Shown piece after piece: positions 1 through 25,482 of a DNA stretch of 41,202 nt (its first letter is position 1; the number at the start of each line of letters is the position of its first letter). Source of the DNA: a virus (Duplodnaviria > Heunggongvirae > Uroviricota > Caudoviricetes); IMG/VR virus record IMGVR_UViG_3300036768_001066; one strand, 5' to 3'. Position numbers and translations under genes: made by a program. The notes below the pieces were generated by a model. The model was not told where the DNA came from. It saw only the letters and a list, made by a program, of their open reading frames with translations, and did no database searches.

Positions 1-139
1 AAAGCACTTCAAAATGAAGGGTGTCGCAGCCTTTTTCATATAAACTACAACCAGGAAAAGCACTTCAAAATGAAGGGTGTCGCAGCGACGATGCTACTCC
101 TGAGCCGCACGAGCCGCTGGAAAAGCACTTCAAAATGAA
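1..139. CRISPR. End of a CRISPR-like mini-array: 36-nt repeat GCTGGAAAAGCACTTCAAAATGAAGGGTGTCGCAGC (type VI-B/Cas13b-like), cut by the window edge
   Basis: Copies at 1-30 (5' part outside the window), 51-86 (two 5' mismatches) and 116-139 (degenerate after 24 nt). Unrelated spacers of 20 nt (31-50) and 29 nt (87-115). The repeat has GCTG/CAGC terminal pairing and a CTTCA-AAA-TGAAG hairpin. Confidence 0.7.
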
Positions 140-16274: not shown

Positions 16275-17813
16275 ATGACACCAAAAAGTCAAATACCCAT
16301 TCGACAGATAGATGGACTGCAGGCCGATCTTGATTCAAAGTTGAACAAGGCGGGTGATGCAATGTCCGGACCTCTGGCGCTTAATTCGACGCTCGTCGAC
16401 GGCGACGGCTCGTCCGGTATATCCGGCCAAATACTTATGACCACTGGCGACGGGGTCAAGTGGCTCGATAGCGGCAGTTTTGTCGGCGCGAGTGGAACTT
16501 CAGGATTCAGTGGAACCTCCGGGTTCTCCGGCACTTCCGGTATTTCCGGAACGTCCGGATTGAGTGGTACTTCGGGCGTGAGTGGTTTCTCGGGCGTATC
16601 AGGGTTCAGCGGTGTGAGCGGATTCAGCGGAGTATCAGGATTCTCCGGCACGTCTGGATTCAGCGGTACTTCCGGAACGAGTGGGTTTTCCGGCACATCT
16701 GGTCTAAGCGGCACGAGTGGATCATCGGGCGTATCAGGGTTCAGTGGTGTGAGCGGATTCAGCGGAGTATCAGGATTCTCCGGTACGTCGGGTTTCTCTG
16801 GTGAGTCCGGCGCAAGTGGCATATCGGGTGTGAGCGGAGCGAGCGGGACGTCCGGGTTCAGCGGAATATCAGGTTCATCAGGTTACTATGGACAGGATGG
16901 TATGTCCGGAGTCTCTGGATTTTCTGGATTTTCTGGTGTTGACGGCGCTTCCGGATTTTCCGGCGTCAATGGTGTAGCCGGTGGTGCATTATACTACCTG
17001 AGGAACGATGCCTCTGATATAGTTGGTTTCAGGCAATTGAATATCAATCCCGATTCTATAGATCCAGAGAGTTCATTCACCGCGGTGTGTAATAATACGA
17101 CAGGCGAGGTTCTTATCCAGCAATTCTTGACCTTACCGTCTAACCCAGACCAGCTTTACATATCTGGTGGTTCGTGGATATTCGATACTTACTCTTCGGT
17201 CGACAACCCAGTTGGAGACACGCGAATAGTTATACGCGTGTACAAGAGGGATTTCGTCGGAACGGAGACACCTTTATTCAGTGCTGAGACTGCCGAGATA
17301 AACGGCGCGGTCGTAGCACTCTATTCTAAAGAGATATTACAGGGCGAGTTCGACCTCGACCTCACGGATAGGATACTCGTCAAGTATTATGCTAAGACCA
17401 CTTCTGTGTCTAATATAACGGTGAGTCTATACGTTGAAGGGTTTACAAACGCTACACACGTTCACTCGCCGGTGTCTTTCGTTGGAGCCTCTGGATTTTC
17501 GGGTTTCAGCGGGGTGAGCGGTTTCTCGGGCGCCTCTGGTTTCTCGGGCACCTCTGGTTTGAGCGGTTACTCAGGAGTCTCAGGATTCAGCGGAGCCTCA
17601 GGATTCTCGGGAGAGAGTGGGACGAGCGGTTTCTCGGGAGAGAGTGGGACGAGCGGTTTATCGGGCACCTCTGGTTTCAGCGGATACTTCGGCGCCTCAG
17701 GGTTCTCCGGCGTGAGCGGGTTCTCCGGCGTGAGCGGGTTCTCCGGCGCCTCTGGTTTCAGCGGATTTGATGCTGGTATACTCGCTATGATAATAAACAG
17801 CCTCGGACTATAA
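16275..17813 (+). CDS. Tail-fibre-like protein with two Ser-Gly-X repeat blocks
   Basis: N-terminal [14 protein letters not shown] resembles the phage tail repeat (I..V.GLQ..L..K); (SGX)n blocks flank a globular domain. Confidence 0.75.
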
Positions 17814-17828
17814 GAAAATATATAAAAT

Positions 17829-18596
17829 ATGATCCGTTTAGATACGACCTCGAAGAGCATTAGGATATACTCGGACGCTACGGCGACGACGAGCGAGCCT
17901 GTATTCGTAACGTCGTATGACGATATACGCGTGGTCAATCCGGCGTTCACTCCAGGGAGTCAGGACGGATCGTTGAATGGTACAACGCCTGTTACTGCAG
18001 TTTCGTCGCCTGTGTCGCCGTTCTACAGGAACATAAAGTACATAAGTGTAGCTAATGTCGATACGGCACCGCATACGGTAACTATTGAGCTCCTCAATGG
18101 AGTCGACCAACGTACGCTGATGAAGGTTTACCTCGAGATAGGGGAAGAGCTCGTGTTCAGCGACGCCGCCGGATGGATGGTAATGAACTCTCTTGGTGAG
18201 ATACGAGTTACCGGGGAATCTGGGCAGAACATAAAGGTCGGTTCGATCGGGTTCGGTCTTGACAACGGAGCAAACCCTCTGACCATAGGAACTAAAGCGT
18301 ACGTGACCGTGCCGTTCTCTGGTACCATAGTAGCGTGGGTAGTTTTCGCCGACCAAATAGGCGACATCCAGGTGGACGTGTGGAAGGACACGTACGACAA
18401 CTATCCGCCGACTGTCGCCGATTCTATACCGGGCAGCGATAAGCCTCGCCTCGTATCGCAGATAAAGAACAGGAACACGAACCTAACGGGGTGGACGGAT
18501 ACTACGGTCAATGCCGGCGACATATTCGCCTTTAACATCGACTCAGTATCAACTATAACGAGAGTTACTGTGCACCTCAAAATAATGAAAGACTAA
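17829..18596 (+). CDS. Virion structural protein, module A plus C-terminal beta domain
   Basis: N-terminus nearly identical in pattern to 20865 (MIRLDT..KS.RIYSDA.ATTSEP.FVT.YDDI). Confidence 0.75.
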   Translation: MIRLDTTSKSIRIYSDATATTSEPVFVTSYDDIRVVNPAFTPGSQDGSLNGTTPVTAVSSPVSPFYRNIKYISVANVDTAPHTVTIELLNGVDQRTLMKVYLEIGEELVFSDAAGWMVMNSLGEIRVTGESGQNIKVGSIGFGLDNGANPLTIGTKAYVTVPFSGTIVAWVVFADQIGDIQVDVWKDTYDNYPPTVADSIPGSDKPRLVSQIKNRNTNLTGWTDTTVNAGDIFAFNIDSVSTITRVTVHLKIMKD

Positions 18597-18597
18597 G

Positions 18598-20712
18598 ATG
18601 TCAAAGAAAGCAGTAGAACATTTATTCACCGGAGCCACGACGCCTATAACGTCGTACGACTCCACCAAGACCAACGTTGGTACGCAGATCAGGCAATACA
18701 CGGGATCCAACCCTACCGACAAGTTTGCAGGTCCATCGATAATAGGTGTGGCAAGACCAATGGAACAATCCACGGCGATACCGGGGATGTTCCCGCACGT
18801 AATAAACTGTGACACGAATACCGATTACGTGTTCCTTGCCGATAACGCCGCTGCCGCTGCAACGAGAAGGATAATTATGTATGAGTACAACAAGGTCACG
18901 TCAATGTTCAACTGGAGGGGTTTCATAACTCTGACATATCCAACCGCGACCGCGCATACCATAAGGGGGTTCAGGATGATATGCGAGTCGTATACAACTG
19001 GTACAGTATCTGTATCAGGCACGGCCGTGACCGGAAGCGGATCTGCCTGGCTAACTGATAGGATGAGCGTAGGATGCCGAATTGGATTCGGGTCCACCGA
19101 TCCGACTGCGATAACCACGTGGTACGAAATCTCGGCCATCGGCGGCGATACTTCCATAACGTTAACGACCTCTGCGGGAACTATACCAGGTGGAACTGCA
19201 TACGTAATACAAGACTTGATGTGTGTGACGTCTACGACTAATGCGACTGCGACCAATGGTGGTCTGTTCGTCACAAAGGGATTGAGAATAGAAAATTTTA
19301 CGACGTCCGGTACCACGATACCGGCCGCGACCACAGTCGATAATATAAGGGCTGTGTACTGGCTCGCCGACGCGGCGGTGGTCACTAATACTACAGCTGC
19401 AGGATCCGCCATAGGACAGAGGACTTCTTGGACATCTCAGTATGTATACGTACTGAATGCGACAGGATCTATCTGCTTCGTGTATAACATAAGAATGGCG
19501 CTAACGCTTGCCGCGGGCAAGGATACTACTACTAACATTATTAAGACTGGTAACCAAGTTCTGACAGGAACCATGTCGCAGATCAATAACGGCAGGATTG
19601 GTACGTTATCTCACGGTCCTGGAAGTGGGGTTGAGAGCTTATATTTTGTAACCACCACAAGGGTTTACAGGTGTGCGTTGACTAACATAACCAACGGTAG
19701 CACAACCTGGACCTCGGACGTAATGGTCGAGGTCCCGCCGGGCGGGACTGCAACATTCGCAGCGACATCCGCGTTGTCTTCTGTAGAGATCTCGAGCTTG
19801 ATAGACAGACTCGTGATAATGACAACTGGTGCTACAAGTACCCGCAGCTACGTCACCACATATAACACAATATCGTCGCAGTTCGAGTTGATATTCCTCG
19901 CAGACGACAGACAGCTCGACCAGTCTACGGCGGATTCCACTATAGTACCACACCCTTCAATACAGGCTTCCACTTTTTCTATTTGGTCGGAGGGGGGAAT
20001 ACTGTATATGGCACGTCACAGTACGGCAGCAACGGCCAATCAGATATACACCATACCGATAGAGGCACACTGGACATACACGTCAACCACTAACCAGGTC
20101 CTAATAACACCTGCCATGGACACGTCGAACGCCACCAAGCTGTATAGGGTTTACGTGAACGAGATTAAGAAGATGGGTAATGATTATCTCGTTAAGAATC
20201 CGGAGCCGTTCAAGACTTACGTCAGGACTGCCGGAATATCTGATAACTCTGGTACGTGGACTCTACTTGACGATAGTGGCACGCTAACATCAATATCGCC
20301 GTCAACGTCTATACAGTTTAAGTTCGAATTTAGAGTGCTTGGCGAGTCGTGCATACCCGCGAGGATAATGGGACTTACGGTGGTTTACGAGGACGACACA
20401 ACTGATTCTCATTACACGCCGTCAGTGGCCAAGTCAAGCGTGACATCTAACACCTTCGGGTACAGGCAATCGTCCCTATGGGGCGGCACAATACCTGACC
20501 TGAGGATAAGGCTGTACAACGCGGTATCGGGCGTGCCGATAGTCGACGACACAGTGACGGCTTCCGCCTTCGGAACGTGGCAGTACTCGACCGACGGCAA
20601 CGTATGGAACGCATGGAGCTCTTCGGCAGATGTCGTGGGCAACTACATCCGTTACGTCGCTACGTCGCTGCCGGGTTCAATTAAAGTGAGGGCGCTGCTT
20701 ACGCAGGCGTAA
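18598..20712 (+). CDS. Large Thr/Gly-rich beta-structured virion/tail protein
   Basis: 704 aa, T/G/S/A-rich, inside the fibre cluster. Confidence 0.75.
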   Translation: MSKKAVEHLFTGATTPITSYDSTKTNVGTQIRQYTGSNPTDKFAGPSIIGVARPMEQSTAIPGMFPHVINCDTNTDYVFLADNAAAAATRRIIMYEYNKVTSMFNWRGFITLTYPTATAHTIRGFRMICESYTTGTVSVSGTAVTGSGSAWLTDRMSVGCRIGFGSTDPTAITTWYEISAIGGDTSITLTTSAGTIPGGTAYVIQDLMCVTSTTNATATNGGLFVTKGLRIENFTTSGTTIPAATTVDNIRAVYWLADAAVVTNTTAAGSAIGQRTSWTSQYVYVLNATGSICFVYNIRMALTLAAGKDTTTNIIKTGNQVLTGTMSQINNGRIGTLSHGPGSGVESLYFVTTTRVYRCALTNITNGSTTWTSDVMVEVPPGGTATFAATSALSSVEISSLIDRLVIMTTGATSTRSYVTTYNTISSQFELIFLADDRQLDQSTADSTIVPHPSIQASTFSIWSEGGILYMARHSTAATANQIYTIPIEAHWTYTSTTNQVLITPAMDTSNATKLYRVYVNEIKKMGNDYLVKNPEPFKTYVRTAGISDNSGTWTLLDDSGTLTSISPSTSIQFKFEFRVLGESCIPARIMGLTVVYEDDTTDSHYTPSVAKSSVTSNTFGYRQSSLWGGTIPDLRIRLYNAVSGVPIVDDTVTASAFGTWQYSTDGNVWNAWSSSADVVGNYIRYVATSLPGSIKVRALLTQA

Positions 20713-20718
20713 TAGAAC

Positions 20719-20865
20719 ATGATCAACGACATAGTTTTTGATCCGTCAGAATTTGTGCTCGAGGTCGCAGACACGACCCCCGGCACTATTGTCGGCATAA
20801 GCCTCGACGGCTCTGCGTACACGTTCACCCAAGTGGCCGAAATAGTTACAATACAGGTAGGCTGA
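20719..20865 (+). CDS. Small protein (48 aa, MINDIVFDPSEFVLEV...)
   Basis: Fills the gap exactly; TGATG overlap with the next gene; below the ORF-track cutoff. Confidence 0.65.
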   Translation: MINDIVFDPSEFVLEVADTTPGTIVGISLDGSAYTFTQVAEIVTIQVG

Positions 20866-21950
20866 TGATAAGATTAGATACCATAAACAAATCTCTCAGG
20901 ATATACTCGGACGCTGCGGCGACGACGAGCGAGCCGATATTTGTAACGGCGTACGATGACATAGAGTCGACAACACCAGTTATGACGCCCGGTGGCAATG
21001 ACGGTGTGCTCACTGGCAACACACCGGTAACGGCTGTGGCACCTCCTGCTGCATCCATATACAGGAACATAAAATACGTGAACGTGTTCAACAACGACAC
21101 GGTCAACAGGGTGATAACAGTCGAGCTCTACAACACGGGTACGAGCAGAACATTGATAAGCGTGATACTTAAACCGGACGAGCAGCTCGTATTCAACGAC
21201 GGTGCTGGATGGATGGTACTCACCACTCTTGGCGAGAAAAAAGTTACAGGTATATCGGGGTTCTCCGGTTATTCAGGCACATCGGGGTTCTCCGGCTACT
21301 CCGGTACAAGCGGGGTTAGTGGATTTAGCGGAACTTCTGGCATATCTGGATACTCAGGAGTGAGTGGATTCTCAGGAGTGATCGGATTCTCAGGAACCTC
21401 AGGGTTCAGCGGATACTTGGGAGTATCTGGATTCAGTGGCGTGTCCGGTTTTTCTGGAGTATCCGGATTCAGTGGAGTTTCGGGGTTTTCTGGCGTAAGT
21501 GGTTATTCGGGAGTGAGCGGATCGGGAGTATCTGGATTCAGTGGAGTTTCCGGTTATTCGGGAGTGAGCGGATTCTCAGGCCTCAGTGGTGATCCGAGCT
21601 ACGGCTTGCTTACCATTAGCGCATCTCGCAACTCGGCAAACACAACGAATCAATACCTAAGGGACGAGGACGGTGTGCCCATGAACCTGGCGCCGGTCGT
21701 AATGCCTTACAATGGCACTATAGTGGCAATGTCCGCATCATGCAACTCGGTTAACGGCAACGCGTGGAGCATAGAGGTGCGGAACAACGGTACTCTTACC
21801 GGAGCTGTGATAAATTTAACTGGTGCACAAACGAGCAATTACTCAGATACATACAACGTGGATGTGAACGCCGGCGATTTACTTCAACTGTATATGACTG
21901 GGGCATCCATAGACAGACCGAAGGGAACAATAGTAATAAAGAGAAGGTAA
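20865..21950 (+). CDS. Fibre-like protein: module A + Ser-Gly-X repeats + C-terminal beta domain
   Basis: Paralogue of 17829 with an inserted (SGX)n block. Confidence 0.75.
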   Translation: MIRLDTINKSLRIYSDAAATTSEPIFVTAYDDIESTTPVMTPGGNDGVLTGNTPVTAVAPPAASIYRNIKYVNVFNNDTVNRVITVELYNTGTSRTLISVILKPDEQLVFNDGAGWMVLTTLGEKKVTGISGFSGYSGTSGFSGYSGTSGVSGFSGTSGISGYSGVSGFSGVIGFSGTSGFSGYLGVSGFSGVSGFSGVSGFSGVSGFSGVSGYSGVSGSGVSGFSGVSGYSGVSGFSGLSGDPSYGLLTISASRNSANTTNQYLRDEDGVPMNLAPVVMPYNGTIVAMSASCNSVNGNAWSIEVRNNGTLTGAVINLTGAQTSNYSDTYNVDVNAGDLLQLYMTGASIDRPKGTIVIKRR

Positions 21951-21955
21951 TATAA

Positions 21956-24049
21956 ATGGTGCCATTTTTAAAAATAACGACAACAGGAGTTGGAAGTCCG
22001 GACATCGTGGTTCTTTATGACCTCGGTGAACGTACTTTTTATCATCCAGTCGTCGACCATGATCTGCTGGAGGAGTACTCGCTGTCGGAATTACAGAATT
22101 CACGCGATCTAATAACAGCTATAGATGACGGTAAATTGACCGGCAACTATAATGGATATTCTGTTACTTCAGCTGACGATTTCTACAATTTCGTAACAGG
22201 TGTGTCGGGCTTTAGTGGGTTTTCTGGCGTTAGTGGTCACTCGGGAATATCTGGATTTTCTGGCATCTCGGGTTACTCTGGCGTTAGTGGGTTCTCGGGT
22301 TACTCTGGCGTTAGTGGGTTCTCGGGTTACTCTGGCGTTTCTGGCCACTCTGGAGTGAGCGGTTTTAGCGGTTACTCTGGAACGAGTGGAACCTCTGGCG
22401 TGAGCGGGTTCTCGGGTTACTCTGGAGTCTCGGGCTATTCGGGTTACTCTGGAGTCTCCGGATACTCCGGAACCTCGGGATTCAGCGGTTACTCTGGAAC
22501 GAGCGGCACATCAGGCGAGTCTGGTTATTCGGGCATATCAGGTTTCAGTGGATACTCTGGCATTTCTGGAATTTCTGGCACTTCTGGTGAGTCTGGTTAC
22601 TCAGGTACAAGCGGGGTATCAGGGGTCTCCGGCTACTCTGGGGTAAGTGGTTACTCGGGTTACTCGGGTTACTCGGGGCTTTCGGGATTCTCTGGCAAAG
22701 CGGACAGATATTTAACATCATCAACTGATTCGCTCACAATACCAGTTGGGTCTCCTAATATACAAATAATTTTTGTTGAGTCGGGATTATCGTATTCCGT
22801 AGGACAAGGAGTTGTCGTCGCGTACAACGCTACAAATCTTTTCATAGGAGAGGTGCAGTCGTACAACTCAGGCACTGGAGAACTCGTAGTCCTCGTCATA
22901 ACAGAGGAGGGTTCGGGAACTTATTCTTCGTGGACCGTCAATCTTGACGGCGTGCAGGGCGTGCAGGGTGAGTCTGGAATCTCCGGTTACTCTGGCATAG
23001 GTTTATCGGGCTACTCAGGCGTGTCTGGTTTTTCTGGTACTTCGGGTTACTCTGGCACCTCCGGATTTTCGGGCTCCGGCACTTCCGGATTTTCGGGTTA
23101 CAGCGGCACTTCCGGATTTTCGGGTTACAGCGGTACATCAGGATTCTCGGGCGTTTCTGGATACTCCGGTGTGAGCGGATACTCTGGCGTTTCTGGATAC
23201 TCCGGTGTGAGCGGATACTCGGGCGTTTCTGGATACTCAGGAACAAGCGGATTCAGCGGATACTCAGGAACAAGCGGATACTCAGGAACCTCCGGCATAT
23301 CTGGTTACTCTGGGACGAGCGGATTCTCCGGCGTATCGGGTTACTCCGGCACGTCGGGATTTTCGGGTTACTCCGGCACGTCGGGATTTTCGGGTTACTC
23401 CGGCACGTCGGGATTTTCGGGTTACTCCGGAACCTCAGGAACCTCAGGTTACTCTGGAGTGAGTGGTTTTAGTGGTGTATCTGGGTTCTCTGGCGTTTCT
23501 GGCCGCTCTGGAGTGAGTGGTTTTAGTGGTGTATCTGGGTTCTCTGGCGTTTCTGGCTATTCTGGAGTTAGCGGATATTCTGGTTACTCTGGCACGAGCG
23601 GTTTTTCTGGAAATTCGCCAGCATCGACATACGGAGAAATGTACTTAAACGGCAACGCAACGGCAACGGCAATCGCGGCAACATCCACTCCATTGAAAGT
23701 GGCTGGAACTACTACAGCCGGAGATCTTACGGCAGACGTGACGCATTCCAATGGAAGACTGACTTATACTGGTGCGGCAACGAGAGAATTTTTAATAAAC
23801 GTGTCCGTGTCGTCTGTATCTGCATCCGCCAACGAGACGTTCAGTTTCTTTGTTTACAAGAACGGCGCGCGAGTTACAAAGTCGCAGATAAATTCATTCT
23901 TCAGGACTTCTACTGATCAATACGCAGCTGGAGTCAATTGCTTGGTATCTCTTGCAACTAACGATTACGTAGAGTTGTGGGTGCAGAATATAACATCCGC
24001 CGCGGACATAACTATATCGTACATGAACTTTACAATGACAAGGATATAA
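21956..24049 (+). CDS. Fibre-like protein with very long Ser-Gly-X repeats and a C1q/BclA-like C-terminal domain
   Basis: Two (SGX)n blocks. The C-terminus (GRLTYTG...FLINVSV...VYKNG...[14 protein letters not shown]) has the C1q/TNF-like jelly-roll pattern. Confidence 0.75.
23341..23421 (+). repeat. Three perfect 27-nt tandem copies (ttactccggcacgtcgggattttcggg) inside the SGX block
   Basis: Copies at 23341, 23368 and 23395. A similar 18-nt unit is repeated ~2.7x at 17700-17748. Confidence 0.9.
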
Positions 24050-24051
24050 AA

Positions 24052-25482
24052 ATGAGGATAGCAGTATTAGATAGCAACGGCATTCAATCTACGGTCGACG
24101 GACAGTTGAGCAACTATTACATAGTGCCGGACAACTATAACTTTGCCACCAATGGCGCCACGGACGTCACTTCGCCTGAGACGTTGTACTTGTTCTTTTC
24201 AGTTAAGCGCATGGAGTATTTTGACTGGAAGGACTCGGCAAATTCGCACGTTATTCCGAATTGGTCTGGCGTTTCCGCTGAGATGAAATACGAGTACAGA
24301 AGGCATTTTGTTATGCCGAACTCTGAGAATATTCTCGACTACTTTACAAGGGCCGAGATATACGAGTTCATGCAGGATCTTGTATGGCGTCCAGACGTAA
24401 TATCATTCGACCCAAGATCTTTGACTCAGACGGTACTGATAGAGCTACCAGATCTTGGTACATCTGGAAAGTTAATAACAACGCAAAATTTGGCGGATGC
24501 ACAAGCTGCTTCTGGATTTAGCGGGGTCTCTGGTTATTCAGGACTCGGCTTATCCGGTTATTCTGGTATAAGCGGCACGAGTGGATCATCTGGCGTGTCG
24601 GGGGTCTCTGGAGTGAGCGGATTCAGTGGCGTGTCGGGTTATTCGGGAAATATCGGTATTTCTGGTACTTCTGGTTTCAGCGGGACCCAAGGTTTTTCGG
24701 GCGTGTCGGGCGTGTCCGGTTTCTCCGGCATTAGTGGTTTCTCCGGTTATTCTGGAGTATCTGGATTCAGTGGTACTGACGGTACAAATGGTTCCTCAGG
24801 GTTCTCCGGATACTCCGGAGTTTCTGGTACCAGCGGCCGAAGCGGGTTCTCCGGATACTCTGGCGCATCTGGTTTTTCTGGGCTGTCGGGTTACTCAGGG
24901 ATCTTTGGATTCAGCGGCATGTCGGGTTACTCAGGGGTCTCTGGGTTTTCTGGTTATAGCGGGACTTCAGGATTCTCGGGAACAAACGGTGCAGCAGGTA
25001 CTTCAGGATTCTCCGGTACGAGTGGCTCATCCGGAATATCTGGGTTCAGCGGTCGAAGTGGGTTCAGCGGAGTATCTGGGGTTTCTGGTTACTCTGGAGC
25101 CCCGTTATCAACAGCAGGTGTTGGTACTTCTCCAGCTGCTACCCAAACAACAACAATCACACATGGTCTCGGAAAGGTTCCAGCTATCATAAGAATTTAT
25201 GGTTATGGTACATTTACCGCAAACAGCTCTGCAACCGCAACCACATCATCTATTGGTATATGGAACTCAAGCGGAAACAGGTGTGTATATCAACGATTCG
25301 GAGCAACAATTACCGCAACTCAAGCGGGTTTATCTTCAACCACCTTTGCAATACTTTTAGCAACAGGCGGGGGAAGTTATATTTCGGGAGTCATTCAGAA
25401 CGTCACATCAACATCATTCGATATTGCATGGACTGAAACTGGAACGACAACAGCGCAGGTGTATATGTGGGAAGCACAATAA
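24052..25482 (+). CDS. Fibre-like protein: module B + Ser-Gly-X repeats + C-terminal beta domain
   Basis: Start at ATG 24052 (MRIAVLD); N-terminus paralogous to 25500; C-terminus has a TITHGLGKVP motif. Confidence 0.75.
   Translation: MRIAVLDSNGIQSTVDGQLSNYYIVPDNYNFATNGATDVTSPETLYLFFSVKRMEYFDWKDSANSHVIPNWSGVSAEMKYEYRRHFVMPNSENILDYFTRAEIYEFMQDLVWRPDVISFDPRSLTQTVLIELPDLGTSGKLITTQNLADAQAASGFSGVSGYSGLGLSGYSGISGTSGSSGVSGVSGVSGFSGVSGYSGNIGISGTSGFSGTQGFSGVSGVSGFSGISGFSGYSGVSGFSGTDGTNGSSGFSGYSGVSGTSGRSGFSGYSGASGFSGLSGYSGIFGFSGMSGYSGVSGFSGYSGTSGFSGTNGAAGTSGFSGTSGSSGISGFSGRSGFSGVSGVSGYSGAPLSTAGVGTSPAATQTTTITHGLGKVPAIIRIYGYGTFTANSSATATTSSIGIWNSSGNRCVYQRFGATITATQAGLSSTTFAILLATGGGSYISGVIQNVTSTSFDIAWTETGTTTAQVYMWEAQ

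Follow-up and report, generated by a model that had tools for sequence, protein, structure and literature searches.

The repeats at the very start of the window (the whole stretch of 41,202 nucleotides analysed here) probably represent a small, partly eroded CRISPR-type array, in which the final 36 nt of a small gene, orfX, make up the first repeat. CRISPR arrays are generally regarded as non-coding, with a location next to cas genes or, in the case of mini-arrays, in intergenic DNA. In the present family, selection at the protein level acts on the first repeat as the C-terminal end of a predicted folded domain, and the identical DNA is also copied around captured 30-nt pieces. The window corresponds to the minus strand of G000:C1:49295-90496, within a phage record of 373,759 bp that is 100% complete according to CheckV. 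The features of the locus are listed below; negative positions lie to the left of the window.

-196 to 43 (L002:155-394, minus strand of L002), plus strand: orfX, 79 aa, with a GGAGG ribosome-binding site just 5' of the ATG; its 3' end is at 1-43, with the stop codon at 41-43
1-30 (-5 to 30 in the 36-nt register), plus strand: repeat copy 1, cut by the window start; equals the last 12 codons of orfX
31-50, plus strand: spacer 1, 20 nt, about 10 nt below the family norm (29-31 nt); the orfX stop codon lies inside it
51-86, plus strand: repeat copy 2, of which 57-86 is identical to copy 1
87-115, plus strand: spacer 2, 29 nt, 62% GC
116-139, plus strand: repeat copy 3, a terminal half repeat with the 5' 21-24 nt retained, then divergent
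522-544: GC-rich hairpin between A and T runs, terminator-like as read from the sequence
L002:484-1203, minus strand: clear HNH endonuclease gene, left of the window and upstream of orfX
L002:1354-1653, minus strand: HNH-like ORF, recognized by its Cys/His motif, without a significant family match; upstream of orfX

Repeats and spacers at the start of the window

In the 36-nt register taken from the relatives of orfX (see below), the three copies are located at -5 to 30, 51-86 and 116-151, giving copy-to-copy distances of 56 and 65 nt. Positions 1-30 recur at 57-86 without a mismatch, where the chance expectation is 0 (up to 3 mismatches allowed, 100 shuffles). Copy 3 has 21 nt in common with copy 2 (119-139 vs 54-74) and diverges thereafter. 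The first-pass annotation had described three copies of a 36-nt repeat, with spacers of 29 and 20 nt, as a phage-borne CRISPR-like mini-array. The number of copies and both spacers are borne out (20 nt at 31-50, 29 nt at 87-115), and the repeat/spacer layout, together with the 36/30 arrays of the relatives, supports a CRISPR-type mini-array. The repeat length of 36 nt stands as the register of the family, but the copies in the window agree with each other over 30-33 nt only, the first 4-6 bases being unlike in all three. A search of the whole 373,759-bp record for more copies found none, either upstream or elsewhere.

No spacer gave a significant match in the target searches. For spacer 2 there was none in the phage's own genome, in IMG/VR or in GenBank phages, so that a comparison of the spacers with phage sequences, suggested earlier as a check, produced no target. 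Rfam recognized no CRISPR repeat family over the locus, and scanning of both strands revealed no recognisable promoter, whether sigma-70-like or of the Bacteroidota type. The hairpin at 522-544 is likely to be the right-hand limit of the transcription unit, judging from its terminator-like sequence.

The orfX family and its gene-plus-array layout

The earlier annotation had overlooked both the coding nature of the first repeat, which forms the 3' end of a conserved gene, and the fact that the arrangement of gene plus array is a trait of the gene family. A phmmer search of 1.8 billion representative proteins recovered 283 relatives of orfX (a family of about 280 sequence clusters), mostly 100-150 aa long, the alignment reaching orfX residues 75-79, i.e. 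the very C-terminus. The family alignment displays a conserved C-terminal motif of 12 residues, VE.HFK.KG.TP, which is encoded by the 36-nt unit. When relatives of up to 300 aa were examined, the end motif recurred in frame in 92 of 241, and in 89 of these 92 the distance was exactly 22 aa (66 nt). Many C-terminal tails end shortly after the start of a motif.

DNA was read for eight metagenome loci, while most other relatives are known here as proteins. In the eight loci, an array of 36-nt repeats and 29-31-nt spacers opens with the final 36 nt of the gene. These arrays have 2-5 copies, frequently with a half or decayed last repeat, and some of their periods are 65 nt. Repeats are near-identical within one locus, except for the last, decayed copies, and unlike between loci; the spacers are unrelated to each other. 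A half-repeat ending that retains the 5' part only occurs in L010 and in the first array of L012, a locus with two gene-plus-array modules in tandem. In L011, L015 and L017, the repeat at the gene end is followed by further copies, the last of which is whole or nearly whole. Arrays that begin inside a gene were not described in the literature searched.

Nine of the 14 variable columns of the gene-end repeats are at third codon positions, and the motif is therefore also selected as protein. An AlphaFold2 model of a family protein has a mean pLDDT of 93.6, and places the motif at the end of the last helix. Comparison of this protein with known folds gave no match (Foldseek E>0.7; VIA-align Z≤4, with scattered winged-helix or homeodomain-like rows), and the ESM Atlas contained no usable match. 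Relatives are found in bacterial chromosomes too, and some belong to Chryseobacterium isolates, among them Chryseobacterium gallinarum and Chryseobacterium sp. MYb328. The family profile found nothing convincing, and two weak matches, in about 1,150 Bacteroidota genomes (401 Bacteroidota, 401 Flavobacteriales and 351 from the family of a Cas13b-bearing genome).

A further setting is seen at L015:6636-9106, where an orfX-family gene and a two-repeat mini-array separate cas6e from cas7e within a type I-E cas operon; the same occurs in L017. A solitary copy of the I-E system's own repeat of 27-29 nt follows the mini-array, just upstream of cas7e, and L017 has a normal I-E array besides (period 60).

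A motif that recurs in frame could be a tandem repeat of the protein, with the units translated and the repeated C-terminal peptide being the functional product. The 66-nt period is divisible by three, and in 92 relatives the reading frame continues through one or more additional units. Against this, the spacers are unrelated to one another, those of L010, L011 and L017 contain in-frame stops, and periods of 65 nt also occur. Within the window, the frame changes from copy to copy (spacings of 56 and 65 nt), and the stop codon of orfX falls in spacer 1; read in the frame of the repeat, copies 2 and 3 are in different frames from copy 1, and are therefore not an in-frame protein repeat. Thus, of the possibility raised previously that the unit is part of a coding repeat, the part that holds is that copy 1 encodes the end of orfX, while copies 2 and 3 do not fit it. 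A protein-level explanation of the repeats is very improbable, and close to refuted.

Genomic setting of orfX in this phage

The family profile matches orfX with an E-value of 6.9e-31 over model positions 44-127 of 143. The conserved core is present, while the N-terminal helices of most relatives are absent. A search of the record with the same profile shows that the phage has a single copy of the gene. Pfam and PHROGs gave nothing for orfX, no relatives were found in GenBank phages or PLSDB plasmids, and the viral contigs of IMG/VR contained neither relatives, nor the periodic motif, nor the repeat consensus.

orfX has a GC content of 0.31, compared to 0.50 for the phage genome and 0.26-0.39 for the family loci, and base composition shifts sharply at about position -200 of the window. 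The HNH endonuclease gene and the HNH-like ORF together occupy the stretch 0.3-1.5 kb to the left of the window, and a SprT-like gene is found on the right side of orfX and the array. The ligase and topoisomerase genes are separated by 4.25 kb, a gap that accommodates orfX, the array and the HNH genes. A single related phage fragment was found (L027; topoisomerase 48% and ligase 37% identical to those of this phage), and there the same gap is about 670 bp; the module, an AT-rich island, therefore lies in an accessory, insertion-prone stretch.

With two HNH genes (one of them HNH-like) just to the left of orfX, the repeats might have arisen by local duplication, either during repair after cutting by an HNH homing endonuclease or by slippage, and be unrelated to CRISPR. 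This would not account for the same gene-end layout, with regular 36/30 spacing, in unrelated metagenome loci that lack HNH neighbours. Local duplication is extremely unlikely, and is disfavoured by the relatives.

Resemblance to Cas13b repeats

The initial annotation had compared the repeat with those of Cas13b (type VI-B) systems. Characteristic of the VI-B arrays of Bacteroidota are a 36-nt repeat with a U-rich open loop and GUUG/CAAC ends, spacers of 30 nt, and a guide RNA in which the spacer precedes the repeat (Smargon et al., bioRxiv 10.1101/092577). The reference set consisted of six genuine Cas13b loci and their arrays. Family repeats show 20-22/36 identity to the six genuine repeats (p≤0.006 vs shuffles), with the best matches antisense. 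These values fall inside the range that the genuine repeats show among themselves (18-28/36), and support the resemblance noticed earlier.

A covariance model built from the genuine Cas13b repeats (R1) matched 22 family repeats, all antisense to orfX; the matches are individually weak (E 0.3-5.5) and most span model positions 11-27, the central hairpin of 16-17 nt. In the phage, copy 1 is matched over the full length of the model, antisense, with 11.2 bits and an E-value of 3 (L002:168-203), and copy 2 over the central hairpin, also antisense (L002:122-137). The loop of this hairpin is U-rich on the antisense strand only, the sense strand having an A-rich loop. Two matches to the Cas13b repeat model, 66 nt apart and on the same strand as the family repeats, were also seen at L014:3812-3893, and suggest a second mini-array in that locus.

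The family shares with Cas13b arrays the 36-nt repeat, spacers of about 30 nt (66-nt period), complementary repeat ends and, on the antisense strand, a central hairpin with a U-rich loop. In the antisense reading, a complete repeat comes after each spacer, in the order of a Cas13b guide. That the Cas13b-like features are on the opposite strand, and that the copy in the window is eroded, had been overlooked. The relatives have clean 36-nt units and spacers of 29-31 nt, as opposed to the 30-33 nt of agreement and the spacers of 20 and 29 nt in the window. GUUG/CAAC ends are absent from the family, the ends being GGU...ACC in orfX sense and, in L012 antisense, GGUG...UACC. The genuine arrays L022 and L023 have a GCUG...CAGC pair, which the window can form only by combining the 3' end of copy 2 with the 5' end of copy 3; copy 2 by itself has no terminal stem. 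The family also differs from Cas13b arrays in the very small size of its arrays, in having a first repeat that encodes protein, and in the absence of cas13b from the phage and from the vicinity of every relative seen. As far as sequence comparison goes, the resemblance to Cas13b repeats is real; because the GUUG/CAAC ends are absent and the R1 matches are weak, it is a resemblance, and membership of type VI-B is not established.

Two of the genuine Cas13b arrays (L019:51-872 and L018:21-372) have 36-nt repeats mixed with long composite repeats (periods of 117-118 nt). These are presumably of the same kind as the long direct repeats described for Bergeyella zoohelcum.

Cas genes, effectors and host arrays

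One suggestion made at first was that a Cas13 might be encoded to the left of the window. Profiles for Cas13b (NF038190), Cas13a (NF038188) and Cas13d (NF038189) found no match there, or anywhere in the complete 373,759-bp record. Cas1 and the TnpB/Cas12f nuclease-bridge domain likewise gave no match above threshold in the phage, in agreement with the original observation that no cas gene is nearby. Among the loci studied, no effector or integrase tied to any of these arrays was found. Large ORFs adjacent to the arrays of L011 and L012 were considered as a conserved neighbouring effector and rejected; they are unrelated to each other and have no family match. L011 also contains an ORF of 442 aa (L011:1141-2469, minus strand) with weak similarity to TnpB (TIGR01766, 31.4 bits, cut-off 32), about 5.4 kb from the orfX module. 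The exact 19-nt core of the repeat has six single matches in 185,579 reference genomes, none of them in an array; this is about the number of exact matches estimated for chance.

Comparison with known mini-arrays

Virus-borne CRISPR mini-arrays, solitary repeat units and RNA anti-CRISPRs are known; the described cases are located between genes, and their repeat is a copy of one from a known host system. Like these, the array of this phage is short, lacks cas genes and presumably depends on host Cas proteins. It differs in that its first repeat is formed by the end of a conserved gene, and in that a search with the exact 19-nt core found no matching host array. [quoted passage not shown] They are similar to the present ones in their repeats, but are found within cas loci, whereas the phage array occurs in a genome without cas genes. 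Repeat-like hits overlapping ORFs were discarded in that survey (Shmakov et al., PMC10120712). In Flavobacterium columnare, VI-B arrays are filled in trans by the Cas1-Cas2 of a type II-C system (Hoikkala et al., PMC8092290). This is a precedent for arrays without an integrase of their own gaining 30-nt spacers, although the array in question is a chromosomal one of a bacterium, next to cas13b, with a non-coding leader of the ordinary kind.

Possible origin, polarity and function

The reading given at the outset includes, as a tentative part, two steps for the family as a whole. A host Cas1-Cas2 integrase would take the gene end for a repeat and insert spacers of about 30 nt. The antisense transcript would then be cut by a host Cas13b-like effector, yielding spacer-plus-repeat guides for that nuclease. 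The full scheme, in which small genes of mobile elements and phages have a coding 3' end that doubles as a CRISPR repeat and the guides let the element direct host RNA-targeting immunity, is possible but improbable.

The polarity of the arrays contains a conflict. The gene side looks like the leader, because the decayed repeat, usually a sign of the old end, is far from the gene, yet transcription from the opposite side is what the Cas13b-like features suggest. Type II-C arrays are transcribed towards the leader (Hoikkala et al., PMC8092290), and transcription of this kind would reconcile a leader-like gene side with antisense Cas13b features. A half repeat at the start of the antisense transcript would avert a useless first guide, a problem that VI-B leaders solve with a hairpin (PMC13187072).

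In this phage, the module probably arrived by horizontal transfer from AT-rich DNA, with the array decaying since. Decay is suggested by the 20-nt spacer, the unlike 5' ends of the repeats and the missing N-terminal helices of orfX; the same spacer and repeat ends, with the lost stem of copy 2 and the single copy of the module, argue for a horizontally acquired, decaying element. On these sequence features the array is probably weak or inactive at present, and the host of the phage may lack the matching machinery.

The earlier proposal had been that the phage borrows or decoys a host Cas13b, i.e. that the array is working now and its transcripts are loaded by, or soak up, the host effector, so that host immunity is turned on competitors or blunted. 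The resemblance to Cas13b repeats is consistent with this, as are the absence of a cas gene from the phage and the survival of two near-complete repeats and a 29-nt spacer, and phages are reported to carry crRNA-like RNAs by which host Cas proteins are hijacked (bioRxiv 10.1101/2024.10.29.618823). It is opposed by the length of spacer 1 (just 20 nt), by the differing 5' ends of all three copies, through which copy 2 has lost its terminal stem, by the presence of a single copy only, and by the lack of a spacer target in the phage's own genome, IMG/VR and GenBank phages. A working mini-array or RNA decoy in this phage is therefore considered fairly unlikely.

It is equally doubtful that the arrays are mere scars, left where the Cas1-Cas2 of a host integrated spacers off-target at a repeat-like gene end, and have no function for the element. 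Off-target integration by the E. coli integrase, creating new arrays, has been described. Such an origin would agree with the precisely held spacer length, with the duplicated repeat being the local one, with the motif being under protein-level selection and part of a domain that is well folded in the AlphaFold2 model, and with no linked effector being known. What it leaves unaccounted for is that arrays are present in at least 38% of the relatives and are spread over highly divergent members (30-50% identity), that tandem gene-array modules are kept (L012), and that a hairpin with a U-rich loop is retained, which would be superfluous for an integrase alone.

If the arrays work, a single sequence serves as both peptide code and repeat, and mobile elements have a new route into host RNA-targeting immunity; with antisense Cas13b-like guides, an element could direct that immunity against rivals or against transcripts of the host. 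Should the arrays instead be scars of integration, they are an example of host adaptation enzymes that write into foreign genes. What the window adds is a module that moves horizontally into an unrelated, T4-like huge phage of 50% GC and then decays. The relatives in bacterial chromosomes and in a type I-E cas operon, and the Cas13b-like features in antisense, are further additions.

Other features of the window

Between the array and the hairpin at 522-544 there is an ORF of 107 aa (153-476, TTG start) without a family match. Further to the right, three large ORFs with collagen triple-helix repeats are located at 16275-25482 (Pfam PF01391, E 1e-28 to 1e-54).
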